The notes below the pieces were generated by a model. It had not been told where the DNA came from and did no database searches. It saw only the letters and a program-made list of their open reading frames with translations. Positions 20,737 through 54,263 of a stretch of 64,000 bases of DNA are shown one piece after another. The position numbers and the translations under genes were made by a program. The DNA is taken from assembly GCA_902789415.1 (NCBI GenBank), contig CADAOD010000021.1, positions 5,030 through 69,029 of the forward strand, in the 5' to 3' direction. Every line of letters starts with the position of its first letter. Within the stretch, counting starts at the first letter, position 1. The DNA comes from an uncultured Prevotellaceae bacterium. GTDB lineage: Bacteria > Bacteroidota > Bacteroidia > Bacteroidales > Bacteroidaceae.

Positions 20737-20808
20737 GGTCGATTCATCTAATGGTTAGGATACAAGATTCTCAATCTTGGCATAGGGGTTCGATTCCCCT
20801 ATCGACTA
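20737..20808 (+). tRNA. tRNA-Glu(CTC), copy 1
   Basis: Anticodon stem-loop CAAGA-TT-CTC-AA-TCTTG, GTTCGATTC T-arm. Confidence 0.93.
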
Positions 20809-20899
20809 CAACATCTTTTACATTTTGGTCGATTGAGTTTTCAACTCTATCTCCCTCGCGACTCGGCAATTCAAGTAAACTTGATTGCGCTCGCTGCTC

Positions 20900-20971
20900 G
20901 GTCGATTCATCTAATGGTTAGGATACAAGATTCTCAATCTTGGCATAGGGGTTCGATTCCCCTATCGACTA
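20900..20971 (+). tRNA. tRNA-Glu(CTC), copy 2; integration target
   Basis: Identical to copy 1 over 72 nt; 3' end duplicated at 54504-54518. Confidence 0.93.
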
Positions 20972-20972
20972 C
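20958..20972 (+). repeat. attL core
   Basis: TCCCCTATCGACTAC, same as 54504-54518. Confidence 0.9.
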
Positions 20973-38297: not shown

Positions 38298-38371
38298 TCT
38301 TTTATTGAATGTTTCTGAAAAAAAATAGAAGAATCCTTTGGTCATTTGAATTATTCTTCGTACCTTTGCAC

Positions 38372-38557
38372 CATAAGACAAACGGACAGCAGTGTGAAAG
38401 GTCGCGATAGTGGCGTAATGTGAGGCACCTGTCTGCTGTTGGTTCCTGGACATGAGCATGGTAACTGGCTCACTTCTTTGCAGGGTAAAGTCCAGACGAT
38501 TTCAGAAGAACTGAAGGGAAAGACCACAGAGATCCACGGGATTTCTGTGGTCTTTTT
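38372..38557 (+). ncRNA. Candidate ~185-nt structured small RNA or terminated leader
   Basis: Consensus promoter TTTG(38337)-N20-TACCTTTG(38361); several stems; 17-bp terminator hairpin 38519-38557. Confidence 0.6.
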
Positions 38558-38678
38558 GCGTGTATACCCCAGTGGTGCGTAGCGGCCCACGGTGAAAAAA
38601 TAAAATAATAGTCATGCCATCTCGGCTCCGGGTGTCCGCTACCACCCGTCCGGGGTGGCTAACTAATTTTTTATAGTT

Positions 38679-39267: not shown

Positions 39268-39801
39268 ATGAAAAAGAGTATTTTTCTGAATTTGATGACA
39301 GTAGCCATGATGGCTGCTATGTGTGTAACCTTTACAGCCTGTGGCGGTGATGACGGTGACAGCACGCCAGGTAAGCCAGACGGTCCGTCAGGACAAACAG
39401 GCAGCACAGAGTATGTAACCCCGTGTCTGGACTTTGGCAGCTCTATAGCACATGTGAAGGAGTATATGTCCGGCACCATCTGGCAGCTGAACGAGAACAG
39501 TAACGACGCTGTTCTGCTCTACATGAACAACCAGGCGACGACAGTGGTAAACTACATGTTCATCAACTCTAAGCTTCACATGACAACTGTTACCTATAAC
39601 GGCGGCGGTGAGAGCAAGGCAAATGCCTTCAAAGCGGAGATAGAGAAATTGTATGGCGTGACGATGACGCGCGAAAATGACCCCGACAACCCTGCCCAGT
39701 TCTCATATCATTGTACGGTAACCGTCAACCAGAAGAGCGTTGTTATCATGATGACCTGCTACGCACAAGGAATCAACATCCTTTATAGTTTGCCAGATTG
39801 A
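39268..39801 (+). CDS. Hypothetical lipoprotein
   Basis: Lipobox TFTAC-GGDD; promoter TATCTTTG near 39219. Confidence 0.75.
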   Translation: MKKSIFLNLMTVAMMAAMCVTFTACGGDDGDSTPGKPDGPSGQTGSTEYVTPCLDFGSSIAHVKEYMSGTIWQLNENSNDAVLLYMNNQATTVVNYMFINSKLHMTTVTYNGGGESKANAFKAEIEKLYGVTMTRENDPDNPAQFSYHCTVTVNQKSVVIMMTCYAQGINILYSLPD

Positions 39802-39920
39802 GACATGAAGAATGACAATATGAGCAGGCGTGACAATGAGCATGATGCCGACTACCTGCGACACCTCGACGAAGTGCTGCAGGAAGAGGAACAAGCACAC
39901 ACAGACTATCTCGACTGATT

Positions 39921-40118
39921 ATGGATGCCAACTACTATAGCAGCTATCTGAAGGTATATCTTACCGATGCCGGTGATGCCCGAAAGGATGATGAAGACTT
40001 CATCAGTTCCAGGGCCGATGCAGCATCAGAAGAGTATGAGGTGCAGCGCCGTGCCGGTGCTCCACCCCCATGTGCCCAGGAAATGGCAATGTCAGTCCTG
40101 ATGGTAGGGTTAGAATAG
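39921..40118 (+). CDS. DUF1896-like small protein
   Basis: YYSSYLKVYL..FISSRADAASEEYE....G.....AQEMAMSVLMVGL pattern of Bacteroidota conjugative elements. Confidence 0.7.
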   Translation: MDANYYSSYLKVYLTDAGDARKDDEDFISSRADAASEEYEVQRRAGAPPPCAQEMAMSVLMVGLE

Positions 40119-40127
40119 CGATCTTTG

Positions 40128-41297
40128 AAACACTGAGATATAGCCTGGCATGCGGCACTTGAGCGATGGGGTTACGCTATTAAGTTAAGTGTTCTGTGAT
40201 TCCATGAGCGTAGCGGTGCCAGGCCCTTATATCGCCGAAGGACTGGATAACGGTTACTGCACCTATTTCTTCTGGAGCATGACTCCGTTTGTGATGGATG
40301 CAGGTTAAGACGTCGAGCTTAGGGGGCGTTCATACGAACGAGCATCTATGACCAGTGAAGGCGATTACTACTGGAGGTTATGCTGTCATTGTCATTATAG
40401 GATTGAATTGCATTAGCAAGGTCTCTCCGCGACGCAGCATATACCTCCATTTTGGGACTTGCGGAGGGGTTCGTCAACAACTGCCCCTGTATGACCATCC
40501 CATGAGCGAGCGGTGCCAGGTTCCTATGGGGAATGTCGGCACTTGAGCCTCCTTTTTGGTGAGCGTTGCGATTCCCCGTCATGGGAAAAGCGGGTGAGAG
40601 TCCCGCACAAGGGGAATGGCAGTTGCTTTGAAAGGTGATCCCACACCCGGTACGACGATTCCCCGTTCTTCTTGGAGGGTTGCGCCAGAGCGTCAAGGGC
40701 GTAAGGAGTGGGGCAAGTACATCACTCGCTGAGAGGCCCCTCCATCTACTGGAGAGTGCAGTATAGGTATTCACAGGTGCTACGGCACGTCTGCGAGGGT
40801 CTGAGGCAAACGCCGATAACGACTGGAAAAACGGCTCTCCATTCTTCTGGGAGTCATTGCCATTATAGGATAGAATTGCATCCGCAAGGTCTTTCCGCGG
40901 CGCTCCCATCTTCTCAGGACGGATGTAATAGTCCTGAAGCTGCACACTGCCGGGTGGAGTAGTTCCCTGCATCCGGGTTCTTCCACTGAAGACAAGCCAG
41001 ACAGGAGTGCAGCATTTTTGGAAACGCCATGTACGCCTCGGCGGAATCGGACTGCCGTCGATCTTGGGTTTCCATCGGGAGGATATTCACGGGAACTGTG
41101 TCCGTGCAGAAGTGCCTCCCGACCTATTGGAGAGTGCGGATATAGGCGAATCCGGGTGCTTCAATGGCACGTCTGGGTGTCCCTGAGATAGCATCAATAA
41201 TGGGTGGAAAAACGGCTCTCCAATCTACTGAGCTGCTGCCGTTGGCTACGCGATTAGGTTCGTGTTCTGTAGTTCGACGGTGGCAGTGTTTTTTTTG
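40128..41297 (+). ncRNA. Candidate large modular structured RNA (or RNA-motif array)
   Basis: No credible ORF; duplicated motifs with compensatory changes; G-U pairs favour the + strand; ends in a hairpin plus T8 at 41235-41296. Confidence 0.6.
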
Positions 41298-41455
41298 ACT
41301 CTGTGCTTTTTGGACAGGACGTCGGCGAATCTGCAAGGGGTGCTGCTCGATGGGAGGAACCCTTTCCAATTCTTTCCAATTCTTGCAAAATTGGAAAGAA
41401 TTATATATATTGGGCGCAGTCCGCTATTACCGATTCCAGAGAGAATAAAGACTTG

Positions 41456-41546
41456 TTAACAATTATCAGCCGCTGGCTGGGAATTATAAAAATATGTAAA
41501 AGAACTGTTGAAAAGTTGTTTTACATTAACTTTTTCGTAACTTTGC
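41456..41546 (+). promoter_or_regulatory. 91-bp promoter cassette, copy 1
   Basis: 85/91 identical to 42681-42771; ends in a TAnnTTTG box. Confidence 0.8.
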
Positions 41547-41604
41547 ACTCAAAGAACGTGGACTTGATGCTCCACAACCATTGTATATTCAAATATTTGA
41601 TAAA

Positions 41605-42360: not shown

Positions 42361-42680
42361 CTTTGAAATATAACAGGTTATCTTGCCTATTTGGGTAAGA
42401 TTATCTTACCCATGTACCCTGTATCAGATCAGCCTACTAAAATATAAGGTGCTCCTTGTATTTTACATCAATTTTGATGTATTTGAAGGTGTAAAGATAT
42501 TTTATTTCGCCCGATTTTAGGGGGATATAACTACCTCACCTGCAGTCTGTTTCGCGTTCTACGGGCTTTATATGAGGTCATTTTCTCCGTCGACATCGGT
42601 AAAATGCCCGTTTCGGCAAAATACTTGACAATATTCAGTTGGCGTATCTTTTACCGATGCAGGAAAGGAATTTGTACCTA

Positions 42681-42771
42681 TTAACAGTTATCAGCCACTG
42701 GCTGGGAATTATAAAAATATGTAAAAGAACTGTTGAAAAGATGTTTTGCATTATCTTTTTCGTACCTTTGC
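42681..42771 (+). promoter_or_regulatory. 91-bp promoter cassette, copy 2
   Basis: Direct repeat of 41456-41546; ends in TACCTTTG. Confidence 0.8.
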
Positions 42772-42793
42772 TGTCAGATAATAACTCTCAGCA

Positions 42794-45562
42794 ATGAAAT
42801 CAGACAAACAAATCGCCAAAGATGCTGCTGAATTTGCAGACCGTTGGCAGGGAGAAGGGTACGAAAAAGGTCAAAGCCAGATGTTTTGGAGTGACCTTCT
42901 GACGAAAGTTTATGGGATAGAAGATCTTACGTCTTTCGTCCGTTTCGAGGAACAGGTGAAGAGTGATATATCAACCACCAACTTCATCGATGTTCGTATT
43001 CCATCAACGAAGGTGTTCATAGAGCAGAAGTCCATCAACAAAGACCTACGTGCTCCCATCAGGCAAAGTGACGGTAATTTCCTGACACCATTTCAGCAGG
43101 TGAAGAGGTATGCCAACGATGTAAGCTATTCACAGCGTCCACGTTGGATAATTACCTGCAATTTCAAAGAGTTCCTGGTCTATGACATGGAACAGCCGAA
43201 CAGCGAGCCAGAAAGTATTTTACTGAAAGACCTCGGTACCGATTATTATCGTCTGAAGTTCCTCGTCGATGAAAAGAGCGAGCATATCAGCAAGGAGATG
43301 GAGGTTTCAATGGCAGCGGGAGAAATTGTAGGACGTATCTACGATGCGCTGCTGAAGCAATATGATGACAATTCACCAGAAGCTCTGCGATGGCTGAATA
43401 TCCTTTGTGTCCGCATTGTGTTCTGTCTGTATGCTGAGGATGCTGGCATCTTCAGCCGAGACCAATTCCATAACTATCTGGCGAAATTTGACGCAGAAGG
43501 AATGCGGCAAGCACTACTGCAGTTATTCCAAACGCTGAACACAAAGGAAGGTAACAGGAGCAAATTCTTACGAGACGACCTGAAAGCATTCCCATATACC
43601 AATGGAGGATTGTTTGCTGCTGAAATCGAGATACCTCAGTTTACGGATGAGCTGCGTAAGGTTTTATTGCATAATGCCAGTCTCGATTTCGATTGGAGCA
43701 AGATATCCCCCACCATCTTTGGAGCCGTTTTTGAATCGACATTGAACCCGGAAACGAGACGTGCAGGAGGTATGCACTACACCAGTATTGAGAATATTCA
43801 TAAAGTCATTGATGCCCTATTCCTGAATACACTCAGGAAGGAGTTCGAGACCATTCTTGAAGAGAAAGTAGAGAAGACCAGGAACAGGCTGCTTGATGCC
43901 TTTCAAGACAAGCTGGCCAGTCTGGTTTTCTTCGATCCCGCTTGTGGCTCCGGCAACTTCCTGACGGAAACATACCTAAGTCTGCGCCGTCTGGAGAATG
44001 ACGTCATTCGTGCCAGATATCACGGACAGGCATTTATTGGTTTTGAAGATAATTCGCCCATCAAGGTAAGTATAAGCCAGTTCTACGGCATAGAGATAAA
44101 CGACTTTGCCGTGACAGTGGCCACCACTGCCCTTTGGATTAGTGAGGCCCAGATGTTGGCTGAGACAGAGAAGATTATTGACTTTAATGATGACTTCCTT
44201 CCACTAAAGACCTACACGAATATTACGGAAGGTAATGCCCTACGCATAGAATGGAAGGATGTAGTTCCTGTAGAGCGACTGTCATATATCATCGGCAATC
44301 CTCCATTTGTTGGCCATCAATGGCGCAATGAGACGCAGCAGGAGGACATGAATCTTGTATTCGCAGATGCAAAGAAACATGGGAAACTTGACTACGTAGC
44401 TTGTTGGTATAAAAAAGCAGCTGATTTAATGCAGAACACACACATCAAATGTGCTTTCGTTTCAACAAACAGTATAACACAAGGTGAAAGTGTGGCGGCA
44501 TTGTGGGAATTGCTTTTTGGGCAGTTTTATGTGGAAATTCAGTTCGCTTATCGAACATTCAACTGGACAAGTGAGGCTTCTCTTAAAGCAGCCGTGCATT
44601 GTGTCATTATAGGTTTTACATGTTACCACGATAAGGAGCAGAAGATTCTTTTTGATAACGACAAGCTATCTTATGTTGAGCATATCAATGGATATCTCTT
44701 AGCGGCTCCCGACATCTTCATTCAGTCAAGAGGGAAACCCCTCAATGCTGATTTACCCATTATGAGCAAAGGAAGTCAGCCAACAGATGGAGGAAATCTG
44801 ATTCTGTCGGTAGAGGAGCGTGAGGAACTAATAAAAGCCTTTCCTGATGCTGAAGTTTTCGTCAAACGTTACATGGGAAGCGATGAGTTTATAAATAACA
44901 AGTATAGATATTGCTTATGGCTAAAGGGGGTCGCACCATCTGATTATAGGAAGATTTCCCCAGTTATGGAACGTTTAAAGAAGGTTGCTGAGACAAGATC
45001 CAAGAGTCCAACGGCATCGGTGAGACGCGATGCAGATATTCCCATGCTATTCACTCAGATTCGACAACCCGAAAGTAATTACCTTGCTGTTCCTGAAGTT
45101 TCTTCACAACGTCGTAGGTATATTCCTATAGGATATATGTCACCAGATGTCATATCGAGTAGTAAACTTATTCTGATTCCCGATGCTTCCATTTACATGT
45201 TTGGCGTGATGACGTCTAATGTTCACATGGCATGGATGCGTGTTGTTTGTGGGCGTTTGAAAAGCGATTATAGCTATTCTCCAGCCGTTTACAACAACTT
45301 CCCATGGCCATCACCCACGGATGAACAGAAAGTAAAGATTGAGCAGACTGCGCAAGCTATACTCGATGCCCGTGCGCTTTATCCGGAAAGCAGTTTGGCA
45401 GATCTCTATGACGAAGTGGCTATGCCACCAGAGCTGCGAAAAGCGCACCAGGCTAACGACCGTGCCGTCATGGAGGCCTATGGATGGAAAGCTGACAGGA
45501 ATTTCACTGAAAGCGTTTGTGTGGCTGAACTATTCAAGCTATACCAGAATTTGGCAAAATGA
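42794..45562 (+). CDS. MmeI-like (Type IIL/IIG) fused restriction endonuclease - N6-adenine methyltransferase
   Basis: N-terminal nuclease (FIDV..VFIEQKS), GMHYT, FDPACGSGNFL, IGNPPF, C-terminal TRD (H.AW.R.VCGRLKSDY.YS...YNNFPWP). Confidence 0.9.
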   Translation: MKSDKQIAKDAAEFADRWQGEGYEKGQSQMFWSDLLTKVYGIEDLTSFVRFEEQVKSDISTTNFIDVRIPSTKVFIEQKSINKDLRAPIRQSDGNFLTPFQQVKRYANDVSYSQRPRWIITCNFKEFLVYDMEQPNSEPESILLKDLGTDYYRLKFLVDEKSEHISKEMEVSMAAGEIVGRIYDALLKQYDDNSPEALRWLNILCVRIVFCLYAEDAGIFSRDQFHNYLAKFDAEGMRQALLQLFQTLNTKEGNRSKFLRDDLKAFPYTNGGLFAAEIEIPQFTDELRKVLLHNASLDFDWSKISPTIFGAVFESTLNPETRRAGGMHYTSIENIHKVIDALFLNTLRKEFETILEEKVEKTRNRLLDAFQDKLASLVFFDPACGSGNFLTETYLSLRRLENDVIRARYHGQAFIGFEDNSPIKVSISQFYGIEINDFAVTVATTALWISEAQMLAETEKIIDFNDDFLPLKTYTNITEGNALRIEWKDVVPVERLSYIIGNPPFVGHQWRNETQQEDMNLVFADAKKHGKLDYVACWYKKAADLMQNTHIKCAFVSTNSITQGESVAALWELLFGQFYVEIQFAYRTFNWTSEASLKAAVHCVIIGFTCYHDKEQKILFDNDKLSYVEHINGYLLAAPDIFIQSRGKPLNADLPIMSKGSQPTDGGNLILSVEEREELIKAFPDAEVFVKRYMGSDEFINNKYRYCLWLKGVAPSDYRKISPVMERLKKVAETRSKSPTASVRRDADIPMLFTQIRQPESNYLAVPEVSSQRRRYIPIGYMSPDVISSSKLILIPDASIYMFGVMTSNVHMAWMRVVCGRLKSDYSYSPAVYNNFPWPSPTDEQKVKIEQTAQAILDARALYPESSLADLYDEVAMPPELRKAHQANDRAVMEAYGWKADRNFTESVCVAELFKLYQNLAK

Positions 45563-51423: not shown

Positions 51424-51771
51424 TTACGCCTCCTGAGTCTCTTTCTTCTCAATCTTCTCGATGGCTGTAGCCTTCCAGACGATGGTCTGATGTTCCTTCT
51501 CGTCCTTGCCGACGTACTGGTTGACCTCGAAGAATCCTTCGATCTTGACGAGAGTGCCTTTCTTCAGCAGGTCCAGCTTCGGGCTGTCAGCCTTGGTGCC
51601 TACCTCGATGTTCTGCAGGGCAGAGATCTTCTTCTCGTTGCCGTCCTTGTCCTTCTTGGTGGTACGGATGGAGAGTGGGAACCGTGCGAAAGCACTGCCG
51701 TTGTTGTTCTTTACTACGTTAGCGTCCATTGCTACGAAACCAGTCACTGTGAAATTGTTGTTAGTTGCCAT
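51424..51771 (-). CDS. ssb: Single-stranded DNA-binding protein (start moved to ATG 51771)
   Basis: NNFTVTGFVAMDA..ARFPLS..LLKKGTLVKIEG OB-fold pattern. Confidence 0.8.
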   Translation of the reverse strand: MATNNNFTVTGFVAMDANVVKNNNGSAFARFPLSIRTTKKDKDGNEKKISALQNIEVGTKADSPKLDLLKKGTLVKIEGFFEVNQYVGKDEKEHQTIVWKATAIEKIEKKETQEA

Positions 51772-51839
51772 AATCTTTAATTTTAAAGGGTTTAACTTAT
51801 AATTTTTACGTGCAATACAGAGCCAACAAGAAACAGTCA

Positions 51840-51996
51840 TGCAAAGACAAGGAATTACAAGCAAATTTTGCGGAATACCCCATTTTCTTTAGGCGTGCCG
51901 TTAAGAAGAAAATGCGGAAGGCTGCTGGAAAATTTGAGCAGGAATAAGGAGCCGTGCGACTGGTACTTGACGAATGACGCTTGGGCTACCTTTGCA
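51840..51996. promoter_or_regulatory. Long fold-back element 2 (candidate ssDNA promoter for ssb)
   Basis: Shares GCGGAATACCC, CGGAAGGCTGC and CTACCTTTGCAA with element 1; TGCAAAG/CTTTGCA arms. Confidence 0.55.
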
Positions 51997-52913: not shown

Positions 52914-54263
52914 CTATTGCTTGTCAAACAATAACATTGCATCCTCTTTAGCCTTGTCAGCTATTTCAATGTATGGTTTCATGGCCGAATAATCGCTGTG
53001 TCCTGTCCATTTCATCACTATCTGAGGGGCGATGCCAAGCATCAGAGCGTTACAGATGAAGGTTCTACGTCCTGCATGAGTGGACATCAGCTGATACTTA
53101 GCATAGACTTCGTCTACACGTTGGCTGCCACGATAATAAGTGACAGGAATAGCCTCGTTAAAGCCAACAATCTCAGCCATCTCCTTCAGATAGTCATTCA
53201 TTCGCTGGTTGCTGATAACAGGAAGGACCTTATCATACGGAAAATTATCCTTTCGGTATTTGTTCAAGATAGCTTTGGCATACTTGTTCAATTCGATCTT
53301 CAAGGAGTCACCGGTTTTTACGGTCGTTATTTGAATATAGCCAGGGAAAAGATTGCTTCGCTTTAGGTTTTCGACGTCAGAATAACGTAAAGAAGTGAAA
53401 CAGCAGAAGCAGAACACATCCCTAACACGTTCAAGAGTGGACTTTTCAAGCCCCACACGCTTCTCGTATTCATATCCGTGGACATCGACAAGGGTCAGCT
53501 TCGTTCCGACGTCAGGAAAGCTAAATTCATAGAGCTTCATCAGTTCGTCCCAATCCAGGAAGACGATAGGTTTCTTAGTCTTCTGAAGTTTTGGCCTAAA
53601 ATTGGCCTTTATGGACGTGTAACCTTTATTTTCTGCCCACCGGATGAAGTATCGCAGACGGCTTGTGTATTTTTCAATCGTAGAATTACGTAGAAACTTT
53701 ACCTCACGAAGAAAATCTACAAAGTACGTAGTTCCATCTTCGTTAAAATAATCGATGGAGGTTACATGTTTATAGTCAAAGAAATCAGTCATGTGCTTCT
53801 GGAACGACTTCATACTTTTGCTCGTTGCCAAACGCCAGCTATTTTTGTCTTTCTGTTCTTCCAAGAAATCTGACAACCGTTTTCTGATGTCATCTGGTAG
53901 TTCTTCTTTCTCTTCAGTTGTTTCTACCTTCTGCTTTTTGAAGTTCTCGTTATAGATGCTTTTCAGGTCACCCACAGTCTGACCATTTCTCCGTAGTTCG
54001 TCCTCATATTCACTAAAAAAGCTATCTATACGTTTCAACTTACTGTTTAACTCGCGGGCAGTAAGAGAACCTATCATCACTGGTTTACCAGCGTATGAAA
54101 GTAGAATTCTCTGAGTGTCCTGATTCCAGTACTCAGGTTTTATAGAGAAACCTGCAGTCGTGGTGAGGCGCTTGCCTTGAATACAGATAGCACATCTCAC
54201 TGTAACGTCGCCATCTCCACGCTTCTTCTCTCTGGTTTTATCTAAGAAAAATCTGACTGACAT
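52914..54263 (-). CDS. Tyrosine integrase
   Basis: Arm-binding N-terminus; SLRYSD, TVKT, HAGRRTF, WTGHS..MKPY catalytic R-K-H-R-H-Y. Confidence 0.95.
   Translation of the reverse strand: MSVRFFLDKTREKKRGDGDVTVRCAICIQGKRLTTTAGFSIKPEYWNQDTQRILLSYAGKPVMIGSLTARELNSKLKRIDSFFSEYEDELRRNGQTVGDLKSIYNENFKKQKVETTEEKEELPDDIRKRLSDFLEEQKDKNSWRLATSKSMKSFQKHMTDFFDYKHVTSIDYFNEDGTTYFVDFLREVKFLRNSTIEKYTSRLRYFIRWAENKGYTSIKANFRPKLQKTKKPIVFLDWDELMKLYEFSFPDVGTKLTLVDVHGYEYEKRVGLEKSTLERVRDVFCFCCFTSLRYSDVENLKRSNLFPGYIQITTVKTGDSLKIELNKYAKAILNKYRKDNFPYDKVLPVISNQRMNDYLKEMAEIVGFNEAIPVTYYRGSQRVDEVYAKYQLMSTHAGRRTFICNALMLGIAPQIVMKWTGHSDYSAMKPYIEIADKAKEDAMLLFDKQ

Follow-up and report, generated by a model that had tools for sequence, protein, structure and literature searches.

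What does a long, stem-rich region carried by a mobile element encode? The question is raised by the + strand of positions 40143-41296 of the window (the whole 64-kb stretch of DNA analysed). The preliminary description proposed a large non-coding RNA comparable with GOLLD, ROOL or OLE or, as a second option, an array of RNA modules. The region is a non-coding RNA locus composed of small domains that fold independently. Taken together, the evidence makes it most probably a modular array of non-coding RNA, whose units may, tentatively, serve as protein- or ligand-binding domains.

Organization of the locus

In the locus, 13 structured units, each of 50-143 nt, follow one another head to tail, and a terminator hairpin with U8 closes the string. 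The locus is carried by a ~33-kb integrative mobile element from a Prevotella-type bacterium of the rumen, within the accessory region and immediately 3' of a short DUF1896 gene. Positions 40050-41250 have a GC content of 0.50-0.58, and the AT-rich genes on either side (38.7-39.3 kb and 41.4-41.8 kb) one of 0.33-0.42. However, the genes just upstream (39.3-40.05 kb) already reach 0.48-0.50 and the step is therefore one-sided: of the GC-rich stretch between two AT-rich genes described earlier, the higher GC content is retained but not the step on both sides. The features, from 5' to 3', are as follows.

39921-40118, + strand: upstream gene, a 65-aa protein corresponding to the N-terminal half of DUF1896 (Pfam PF08989, E = 2.2e-12, profile positions 6-68 of 142)
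40120-40127, + strand: GATCTTTG, a degenerate -7-type box and candidate promoter element, read from the sequence and conserved in one related locus (L003)
40143-40224, + strand: unit C (fold -33.2 kcal/mol; motif expected 0.00 times by chance)
40229-40371, + strand: unit J, a 143-nt multi-hairpin domain (fold -43.9 kcal/mol, z = -1.82)
40372-40448, + strand: unit A, copy 1 (fold -28.6 kcal/mol, z = -4.21)
40449-40527, + strand: unit K (window copy folding no better than shuffles, z = +0.38)
40528-40577, + strand: unit C2 (fold -31.9 kcal/mol)
40578-40610, + strand: short hairpin GCGGG-loop-CCCGC linking C2 to D, from folding
40611-40664, + strand: unit D (98.9% paired)
40666-40744, + strand: unit I (fold -29.3 kcal/mol; 7 distinct sequences, little variation)
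40745-40849, + strand: unit B, copy 1 (covariance model R1, 118.9 bits, E = 4.8e-33)
40849-40907, + strand: unit A, copy 2 (core shared with copy 1)
40909-41013, + strand: unit G (fold -41.3 kcal/mol, z = -2.64)
41014-41122, + strand: unit H (fold -45.3 kcal/mol, z = -2.91; 6 distinct sequences, few changes)
41123-41230, + strand: unit B, copy 2, a variant subtype (model R1, 94.7 bits, E = 1.3e-25)
41232-41296, + strand: unit F1, a long terminator hairpin with conserved GCGAUUAG, followed by U8 (-29.6 kcal/mol, z = -5.67)

The first RNA unit starts 25 nt past the stop codon of DUF1896, suggesting that this gene and the array are probably co-transcribed. The short form of DUF1896 has an identical end point in three other loci. 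The degenerate -7 box reported at 40120 is indeed present. It lacks the TA of the Bacteroidetes TAnnTTTG consensus, and a -33 TTTG is not seen.

Three motifs had been described as occurring twice, in the order C-A-C'-...-B-A-B, and this pattern is real. Repeats A (40385-40435 and 40853-40903) share 88% identity, repeats B are located at 40736-40849 and 41114-41230 and repeats C at 40199-40230 and 40497-40527. The core motifs are confined to this locus, with exactly two copies each in 64 kb where shuffles give an expectation of 0.00, and the window contains no unit B other than the two in the array.

Unit C is bounded by a "frame" helix, CCUGGCA (40144-40150) paired with UGCCAGG (40217-40223), which surrounds an irregular conserved stem (GGCACUUGAGC with UGAGCGUAGCGG) and a variable inserted hairpin; in other loci this frame is found around six or more different interiors. 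Unit C2 retains the core of C, with a short insert, while the closing helix is changed to GGGGAAU/AUUCCCC. Copy 1 of unit A exhibits a long closing stem (GGUUAUGCUG with CAGCAUAUACC) and the conserved core UCAUUGUCAUUAUAGGAUUGAAUUGC-loop-GCAAGGUCUCUCCGCGACG, whereas copy 2 is closed by GGGAG/CUCCC and carries GCC/GGC rather than GUC/GAC as its inner stem. Each domain has a conserved core within a closing helix of changeable sequence. Unit K combines an E-type hairpin (UUGCGGAGGGGUU...CCCCUG) with the 3' strand of the frame, CCCAUGAGCGAGCGGUGCCAGG. The corresponding 5' strand is absent from the window and is restored in three DNA runs (X1, X4 and X12) by 30 extra nt between 40452 and 40454.

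Unit D includes a closing stem P1, an inner stem P2 (GUUG/CGAC) and a hairpin P3 (GGUG/CACC). The "T-loop" of the preliminary description is CUUUGAAAG in this unit, at about 40627-40635, and is T-loop-like by sequence. Unit I has a closing stem GGAGGG/CCCUCC with three hairpins within. Unit B is composed of P1, a hairpin P3 with a GU bulge, and P4-P5 with a conserved CUGAG/GAUAAYG internal loop; some copies carry GNRA-type loops. Unit G starts with the hairpin CAGGAC/GUCCUG, followed by a domain closed by GCUGCAC/GUGCAGC, and unit H is formed of two hairpin domains, GGAAAC...GUUUCC and UCGGGAGG...CCUCCCGA. Among the stems named earlier, GGAG/CTCC at 40273, CAGGAC/GTCCTG at 40915 and GGGAGG/CCTCCC at 41077 are recovered, but GGATGTA/TGCATCC at 40921 lies outside the consensus fold, in which GGAUGUA falls in a hairpin loop.

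Unit F1 is the predicted 3' end of the transcript. A simple terminator scan did not flag this hairpin because its loop is larger than the limit of the scan, but direct folding reveals it and confirms the long terminal hairpin with its T8. F1 is also observed at the end of arrays or of single units in nine other loci.

Base pairing, strand and transcription

Unit B, aligned with MAFFT, is 90% paired with 14 compensatory pairs (0 of 500 shuffles). A model-based alignment of 62 distinct sequences is 98% paired, with compensatory changes in 14 of 21 pairs, compared with 36-47% pairing in slid controls. For unit D (12 distinct sequences), 8 of 15 pairs are compensatory, none of 500 shuffles reaches the score and slid controls are 37-53% paired. 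Compensatory changes are also found in 9 of the 25 pairs predicted for unit G (13 distinct sequences) and in 5 of the 23 pairs of the C/E frame; units A, H, I and J vary too little for a covariation test. The sequences compared are from closely related rumen elements, which limits the phylogenetic depth of the covariation, and part of it derives from paralogous copies. The z values from single-sequence folding are modest in most cases (-0.5 to -2.9), and the strong structural evidence is comparative, not thermodynamic.

Conserved G-U pairs and folding energies both point to the + strand as the RNA strand. At two positions of unit B, G-U occurs more often than any other pair (39 of 57 and 37 of 61 sequences), in agreement with the earlier proposal that such pairs mark this strand. 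Summed over 13 segments, the folding energy is -397.6 kcal/mol for the + strand and -320.3 kcal/mol for the - strand, a difference of ~77 kcal/mol in favour of +.

In seven rumen metatranscriptomes, the region 40.1-41.3 kb reaches a depth of 3-34, and the gene at 41.5-42.4 kb one of about 0-3. DNA runs, used as a control, show equal depth over the array and the neighbouring gene. As the units are multi-copy in the community, their apparent depth is somewhat inflated. The preliminary description had called for a + strand transcript: RNA is present over the array, but as these runs consist of assembled, undirected contigs, its strand, ends and processing are inferred only.

A conserved promoter cassette, ...TTCTTCGTACCTTTGCA..., is located directly 5' of units A, B, D, E and L, with T-runs on their 3' side. 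Some units are small stand-alone genes with a predicted Bacteroidetes promoter and a T-run terminator. This is the case of unit A in two loci (L010 and L046), where the promoter is of the TAnnTTTG type. In the short array of L004, unit A comes first, directly 3' of the promoter.

Units in related loci and alternative readings

BLAST and seed maps of related DNA from 51 rumen contigs reveal the units in varied orders and numbers. The pool includes at least 12 unit types, and arrays of related elements range from one unit (~75 nt) to more than 12 units (~1.5 kb), with all units of a given array on one strand. Unit J, for example, recurs in nine other loci with 85-98% identity. Metatranscriptome and DNA contigs contain unit junctions in other combinations, joined at unit boundaries, and unit E can be nested inside unit C. 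These recombined units, together with the compensatory pairs, bear out the array of modules that had been the second option. None of the three outcomes named at the outset as refuting (a strong Rfam hit, conserved codons in the 208-aa ORF of the - strand, or missing RNA) was observed, the presence of RNA being read from undirected contigs. Among species-representative genomes, unit B is found in only 4, all rumen MAGs, and scans of IMG/VR identified units in only one contig, so that the family could not be shown outside the rumen.

It is improbable that the locus forms one large RNA acting only as a whole, with the units as sub-domains, in the manner of ROOL, GOLLD and OLE. These large "ornate" bacterial RNAs (PMC5737381; cryo-EM work in bioRxiv 10.1101/2024.12.08.627333) are similar to the array in presenting hundreds of nt of dense, covarying structured RNA, mostly on mobile elements. 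ROOL was likewise first seen in rumen metagenomes (PMC5737381). The array has 1.15 kb of dense helices, and its GNRA-type loops and T-loop-like element could mediate contacts between domains. However, ROOL, GOLLD and OLE each have a single conserved architecture and are often found near tRNA arrays or in prophages, whereas the array is combinatorial, has single units that are genes and belongs to an integrative mobilisable/conjugative element of Prevotellaceae. A fixed single fold is disfavoured because the number and order of units vary among the 51 loci and single units stand alone. Moreover, tRNA genes are absent beside the arrays of 12 loci and near the array in the window, no phage record matches (BLASTN of the array region against GenBank phages; the corresponding search of PLSDB plasmids was likewise negative) and Rfam gives no ROOL, GOLLD or OLE match. 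The earlier comparison is thus appropriate for size and ornateness but not for a single fixed architecture, and a fixed GOLLD/ROOL-like RNA is unsupported.

Still less probable is that the structures act in single-stranded DNA, as single-strand origins, priming sites or attC-like sites after conjugative transfer. Covariation cannot separate RNA from DNA of the same strand, and the relaxase gene is ~4.4 kb from the array. Were oriT to lie at ~48.4-48.7 kb and the relaxase side to enter last, as inferred, transfer would involve the + strand. Single-strand origins depend on structure and work in one orientation (ICEBs1 sso1, PMC4595007). Like attC sites, they have strand-specific folds, preserve structure over sequence and form imperfect palindromes with bulges and variable centres; the CCTGGCA...TGCCAGG frame, with its bulged bases and variable interior, is attC-like in this respect. 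However, such sites act as DNA and have neither promoter nor terminator, whereas here predicted promoters and terminators occur, together with RNA coverage. Predicted double-strand promoters and T-run terminators bracket even single units, and L046 carries a single unit A on the strand opposite to its array, each with its own promoter. RNA is enriched relative to the flanks and DNA is not, and G-U is the preferred pair at several positions, where G-T would be weak in DNA. In addition, the neighbours of the L004-L009 copies are Wadjet-like (DUF3584) and AbiE genes, the 8 kb viewed there include no relaxase, and the integrase of the element is of the Arm-DNA-binding plus phage-integrase type, with no match to an integron integrase.

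The units could also be selfish mosaic repeats of the BIME/REP or MITE-like kind, their RNA being a by-product or a 3'-end stabiliser, but this is very unlikely. BIMEs combine a small number of palindromic unit types into mosaics within transcribed intergenic DNA, and their unit number varies between loci; the array shares the mosaic composition, the variable copy number, the nesting of E in C and the position at the 3' end of an operon. However, REP units are simple ~35-nt hairpins with hundreds of dispersed copies, whereas those of the array are complex multi-helix domains with conserved unpaired nucleotides, compensatory changes and dedicated promoters. They are restricted to one locus in 64 kb and, for unit B, to four species-representative genomes, and no transposase, RAYT-type or other, adjoins the array.

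A cis-acting role as leader or 3' UTR, in which tandem riboswitch-like or attenuator elements would control adjacent genes, is slightly less likely again. The array does begin just past the DUF1896 stop codon, and in L019 unit M is directly 5' of a metallophosphoesterase gene. However, a strong terminator ends the array, the next gene has its own predicted promoter repeat, downstream genes differ among loci and no downstream gene falls within the transcripts of stand-alone units.

Finally, the reading of the sole long open reading frame (208 aa, - strand, 40346-40972) as a real gene with incidental structures can be dismissed: although it is the longest in the region and has 49 database hits, these are fragmentary and of varied length (117-239 aa, covering 12-100% of the query, with no Pfam domain in the matching part), substitutions by codon position are 188/183/238 and 21 of 31 indels shift the frame, among them a 4-nt GTAC insertion that recurs at 40716. 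Its codons are not conserved and the region has, as first stated, no credible ORF.

Known RNA families and possible roles of the array

Searches of the whole window against Rfam 15, which includes GOLLD, ROOL, OLE, HEARO, raiA, group I/II introns, riboswitches, ribozymes and the Bacteroides BTnc sRNAs, identified only three tRNAs at the gathering threshold. Four chance-level hits, all far below gathering, were obtained in 39800-41600 at E<=10. The units thus correspond to no Rfam family, in keeping with the absence of a recognised consensus noted at the outset, and ARAGORN detected no tRNA-like units. In nine other array loci (E<=5) the only family returned was FopS/GibS, outside the array; in L048 one FopS copy is located 230 nt downstream of it. 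FopS/GibS (RF04319; PMC11697453) are, like the units, multi-copy small RNA genes of Bacteroidota with the same promoter type. However, FopS RNAs are ~70 nt long, act by seed pairing and consist of a seed and a terminator, whereas the units have conserved junctions and covarying stems with no single-stranded seed. None of them matches the FopS model.

Several other candidates were rejected. An intron splitting DUF1896 has as its best model group-II-D1D4-4, at 12.5 bits for a gathering threshold of 49; nothing resembling the C-terminal half of DUF1896 was observed in the ORFs downstream of the array, read by eye, and in L001 other genes come after the short form of DUF1896. A CRISPR array or RNA anti-CRISPR is not compatible with units of 50-143 nt rather than 28-37 nt and the absence of a repeat-spacer period. 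Nor do the heterogeneous units and varying downstream genes fit a ToxI-like type III toxin-antitoxin, in which near-identical tandem repeats of ~36 nt precede the gene of an endoribonuclease toxin. Unit D shows a partial likeness to a Cas13b repeat, the linkers to the Cas12a handle and GCGGAU.UAG to the 5' end of a tRNA; we consider these resemblances superficial and did not use them. Literature searches retrieved no description of this locus. If this holds, the array comprises about a dozen undescribed structured RNA domains.

A possible functional parallel is with multi-unit RNAs such as the CsrB/RsmZ-type protein sponges, the ToxI antitoxin repeats and the RNA anti-CRISPRs (Racr; PMC10651486), in which protein-binding units form strings or lie dispersed in accessory regions of mobile elements, with a promoter and terminator of their own or shared, and sequester a protein. 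Their units are simple, ~20-40 nt long and of one type, with identified partners (CsrA, ToxN and Cas proteins), whereas those of the array measure 50-143 nt and belong to at least 12 unrelated types, with no repeat-spacer periodicity found.

The genes around the arrays vary and form a neighbourhood of conflict type. The window holds an MmeI-type enzyme and a YAcAr/SLOG protein, and a gene for a 234-aa secreted-type protein is located downstream of the array. Metallophosphoesterases adjoin arrays in other loci, and an AbiEii and a DUF3584 protein are found nearby in L004. When the flanking ORFs of all loci were clustered, the only consistent protein partner was the upstream pair formed by a lipoprotein and DUF1896. 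Two candidate partners that neighbour some arrays, an 82-aa protein and the metallophosphoesterases, do not occur in the window. DUF1896 has been reported adjoining AcrIIA9 and ArdA homologues (PMC6739104); comparisons of DUF1896 with PDB sequences and of the neighbours with NCBIfam returned nothing informative.

The product would be a stable multi-domain RNA, each unit of which would bind a protein or a small ligand, either from the host or from a rival element. Provided that it acts as RNA, it may, tentatively, serve as a decoy, sponge or scaffold with protein- or ligand-binding units. Unit turnover would then reflect an arms race, as is typical for defence and counter-defence regions. A more specific and rather unlikely version is a combinatorial library of aptamer-like decoys, each type sequestering a different defence protein or immune signalling nucleotide, in which elements would shuffle, nest and duplicate decoy domains as their hosts change. 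The high steady-state RNA does not fit well with a purely entry-phase anti-defence role. If true, the decoy library would represent an RNA-based counter-defence or defence "cassette array" without described precedent.

To our knowledge, large bacterial RNAs have fixed folds and RNA arrays repeat one simple unit. The modular array, if correct, would mean that RNA genes can be built from heterogeneous, independently folding domains that are joined in strings, placed inside one another and reshuffled, much as protein domains and gene cassettes are. Its compact natural folds of 54-110 nt, with covariation support, are material for structural biologists. Moreover, the location of the array amid restriction-modification, SLOG, phosphoesterase and abortive-infection genes on mobile elements of rumen Prevotella could make RNA-only players in conflicts of such elements with their hosts directly testable.

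Architecture of the array

The array is transcribed, lies on the plus strand and is closed by a terminator; it is a string of RNA domains that fold independently and come from a common pool. Between 40128 and 41297 the GC content (0.50-0.58) exceeds that of the surrounding AT-rich genes, and the sole long ORF is one of 208 aa on the minus strand (40346-40972, hereafter the minus ORF). A preliminary description recognized three repeat families of two copies each, and their order agrees with the copies located here.

Repeat families of the array (window coordinates, plus strand)
40385-40435 and 40853-40903, plus: family A, copies 88% identical
40736-40849 and 41114-41230, plus: family B
40199-40230 and 40497-40527, plus: family C

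Their core motifs occur exactly twice each in the 64-kb window (0.00 expected from shuffles). The terminal hairpin with T8 proposed earlier was also recovered, as a 56-nt hairpin followed by U8 (-29.6 kcal/mol, z = -5.67), and three of the four stems proposed with it were retained, GGATGTA/TGCATCC falling outside the consensus fold. Unit K is incomplete in the window, where the 5' strand of the frame helix is missing. This copy corresponds to a deletion or variant, because three DNA sequencing runs (X1, X4 and X12) carry 30 additional nucleotides, AGCCTGCCTGGCATGACAGTGTGAGGAGCC, at 40452-40454 that restore the missing strand.

The minus ORF, though spurious, served as query for a protein database search. 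The 49 matches differ widely in length and coverage, as expected if the DNA but not the reading frame is conserved. The contigs encoding them, together with pattern scans of species-representative genomes (4 loci), JGI metagenomes (37) and IMG/VR (1), provided 51 related loci, all from rumen (51/51); every related sequence comes from closely related rumen elements. Plasmid and phage collections contained no similar sequence. The runs containing the window sequence are bovine gut metagenomes. The named genomes are all MAGs, of which three belong to Prevotellaceae and one carries the label Saccharofermentans (Firmicutes). In the latter, a 60-kb contig (L012, JAIKWL010000006.1) carries an array with its DUF1896 gene, which is either a binning error or an element crossing phyla.

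BLAST comparison of the window region with these loci gave short colinear blocks whose order differs between loci. Detailed mapping with 17 seed units and the promoter cassette identified from one to more than 12 units per array. Arrays often start with a C-type frame, many are closed by a terminator unit (F1 or F2) and the units of a locus nearly always share one strand. Six loci (L004-L009) have a short version of about 400 nt (A, L, B, M, F1) directly after a Bacteroidetes promoter, TAcCTTTG with the conserved cassette ATAATACCAATTTTCTTCGTACCTTTGCA. On L010, a contig of a Prevotellaceae MAG, units A and E are solitary, short transcripts start with L or B, and in each case the same cassette lies 5' and a T-run 3'. 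Another contig (L046) carries a solitary unit A on the strand opposite to its array, flanked by a separate TAAATTTG promoter and T-run. The interior of the closing frame helix (CCUGGCA...UGCCAGG, one G bulged) takes at least six different forms, among them one or two nested E hairpins, and contigs from RNA and DNA runs show yet other unit combinations, joined at unit boundaries.

Other small elements were observed. In the window, 38340-38570 (plus strand) has the same promoter cassette, TTCTTCGTACCTTTGCA, at 38354-38370, then about 190 nt of structured sequence ending in a 19-bp hairpin (about 38516-38556) and a T-run (-70.3 kcal/mol, z = -3.19); it resembles another small-RNA gene, distinct from the array and located upstream of a 153-aa gene. 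Operator-like repeats and palindromes (ATCAAGTTGAC, ATATCAAGTT, AAAGTTGAT; L004:4330-4420, L003:3540-3610 and L010:5730-5790, minus strands) lie directly 5' of cassettes driving single units or short arrays, which suggests a dedicated repressor. On a rumen contig (L048:2357-2421, plus strand), an sRNA of the FopS family, described for Bacteroidaceae (RF04319, 64.6 bits for a gathering score of 56), has its own promoter 230 nt downstream of an array.

Conserved structure and transcription

Unit B was first tested on a MAFFT alignment of 42 distinct sequences with five specified helices. Pairing is kept in 90% of cells, 14 pairs changed on both sides and none of 500 shuffles reached any of the measures, while slid controls paired at 34-49%. 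One proposed helix, P2, was unsupported and was dropped. The covariance model built from this alignment found 77 copies in 44 sources; its sole matches in the window score 118.9 bits (40745-40849) and 94.7 bits (41123-41230). When 62 distinct sequences were aligned with the model, 98% of cells paired and 14/21 pairs were compensatory (slid controls 36-47%). Such an alignment tends to favour the model, but the MAFFT alignment gives a concordant result. In unit D (12 sequences), 98.9% of cells are paired and 8/15 pairs are compensatory: the closing helix occurs as three very different sequences (GGGGAAU, CUGGAAAC and CCUGGCA) and in the inner helix U-G is replaced by G-U or G-C. Compensatory changes affect 9/25 predicted pairs of unit G and 5/23 of the C/E frame. 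Variation in our sample of units A, H, I and J is too low for a covariation test; the two window copies of A show compensatory differences in two stems.

The G-U pairs assigned earlier to the plus strand are reflected in the pair counts of unit B, where G-U outnumbers every other pair at two positions and is also frequent at a third. This preference marks the plus strand, since the same pairs would be A-C mismatches on the other. Folding summed over 13 segments also favours it (-397.6 kcal/mol vs -320.3 for the minus strand), and promoters and terminators agree. That the minus ORF might be a real gene is unlikely: in all homologous segments, substitutions at codon positions 1/2/3 number 188/183/238 and 21/31 indels are not multiples of three, in keeping with the original view that the region has no credible ORF. 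Among these frame-breaking indels is a recurrent 4-nt GTAC insertion at 40716, which is present in RNA and DNA contigs too.

Part of the sequence is held by 18 RNA-labelled runs. RNA over the array, anticipated in the preliminary description, was found in seven rumen metatranscriptome runs, its strand being predicted from the sequence as the contigs are undirected. Contigs cover 40.1-41.3 kb at depth 3-34, against 0-3 for the downstream 234-aa gene and mostly 0 over 6 kb upstream, these values being the assembler's word depth for units that are multi-copy in the community. The enrichment is at the RNA level, because DNA runs with related elements give about equal depth for array (11-34) and downstream gene (11-13); depth is flat at 12.7x in X1, the run with the same element as the window.

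The host element

The mobile element that carries the array is integrative and spans about 33 kb, from a tRNA-Ser/Glu/Glu cluster (20.6-21.0 kb) to a tyrosine integrase (52914-54263). Its first block encodes DUF3853, a DnaB-type helicase, ParA, DUF5045 and a YAcAr/SLOG protein. A lipoprotein, a 65-aa protein corresponding to the N-terminal half of DUF1896 (stop at 40118) and the array follow, then the 234-aa protein and an MmeI-type enzyme (42794-45562, plus strand) with all five Pfam domains complete (N-terminal, helicase spacer, methyltransferase, TRD, C-terminal). This cargo enzyme lies between array and relaxase gene; the minus strand encodes the relaxase, a MobC-like protein and an SSB.

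Flanking-ORF clustering of all loci identified no constant protein partner other than the upstream lipoprotein (25 loci) and DUF1896. In Bacteroidetes, DUF1896 proteins are reported neighbours of AcrIIA9 and ArdA homologues (PMC6739104). Metallophosphoesterases (11 loci) and an 82-aa protein (7 loci) lie downstream of some arrays; the window has neither. Of the neighbouring ORFs that were scanned, none was recognized as a gene for a reverse transcriptase, Cas protein, TnpB/IscB or toxin.

At the left edge, beside tRNA-Ser(GCT), two tRNA-Glu(CTC) genes with identical scores (20737-20809 and 20900-20972) may be an integration target or a duplicated attachment site. Beyond the presumed oriT, at about 48.4-48.7 kb, the SSB (51424-51864) and integrase genes lie on the minus strand and read towards this site, an arrangement expected of a leading region; we infer that the array would then sit in the part entering the recipient last. 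A 106-nt direct repeat (89% identical) precedes the 234-aa gene (41451-41556) and the MmeI-type gene (42676-42781) and looks like a common promoter or leader region. About 70 nt past the array terminator, AATTCTTTCCAATT and AATTGGAAAGAATT form a perfect inverted repeat of 14 nt around a 7-nt spacer (41368-41402), which might serve as an operator or recombination site.

Possible modes of action

The alternative that deserves mention is that the structures act as ssDNA, as a single-strand origin or attC-like site (PMC4595007). Covariation is compatible with DNA as well as RNA and the frame helices resemble attC sites. However, the presence of promoters and terminators, enrichment of the array in RNA, preference for G-U pairs and opposite unit orientations on L046 all argue for RNA. 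A single ROOL/GOLLD-like RNA acting as a whole is unlikely, since the architecture varies between loci and units also occur singly as genes; of the two options originally offered, the array of RNA modules is supported and the single fixed RNA is not. Selfish mosaic repeats and cis-regulatory leaders are also unlikely.

As first suspected, the array matches no recognized consensus: Rfam 15 gave no match for any unit in the window and nine other loci, even at permissive thresholds. No tRNA-like unit, intron core (Rfam models) or repeat-spacer period was detected in the array, and no description of the locus was found in Rfam or the searchable literature. Large structured RNAs on mobile elements are of a known kind; combinatorial construction from many unrelated domains is, as far as we found, undescribed so far. 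That the units are RNA decoy cassettes, something categorically new, we consider improbable.

Junctions, bulges and loops are the conserved parts of the units, helices are free to vary and there is no obvious conserved single-stranded seed. The units therefore look like binding or tertiary-fold modules, and may act as such, rather than as base-pairing sRNAs. Their heterogeneous, nested and rapidly reshuffled nature, in a conflict-type neighbourhood (MmeI-type enzyme, SLOG proteins, phosphoesterases, AbiE, a DUF3584 protein and DUF1896 with its anti-CRISPR/ArdA associations), would fit a role of the array in conflicts between the element, its host and other elements. Provided that the array acts as RNA, this setting and the putative module character favour a decoy, sponge or scaffold, a guess from sequence that we hold only tentatively. 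The high steady-state RNA level suggests that the array is active in the resident state too, beyond entry.
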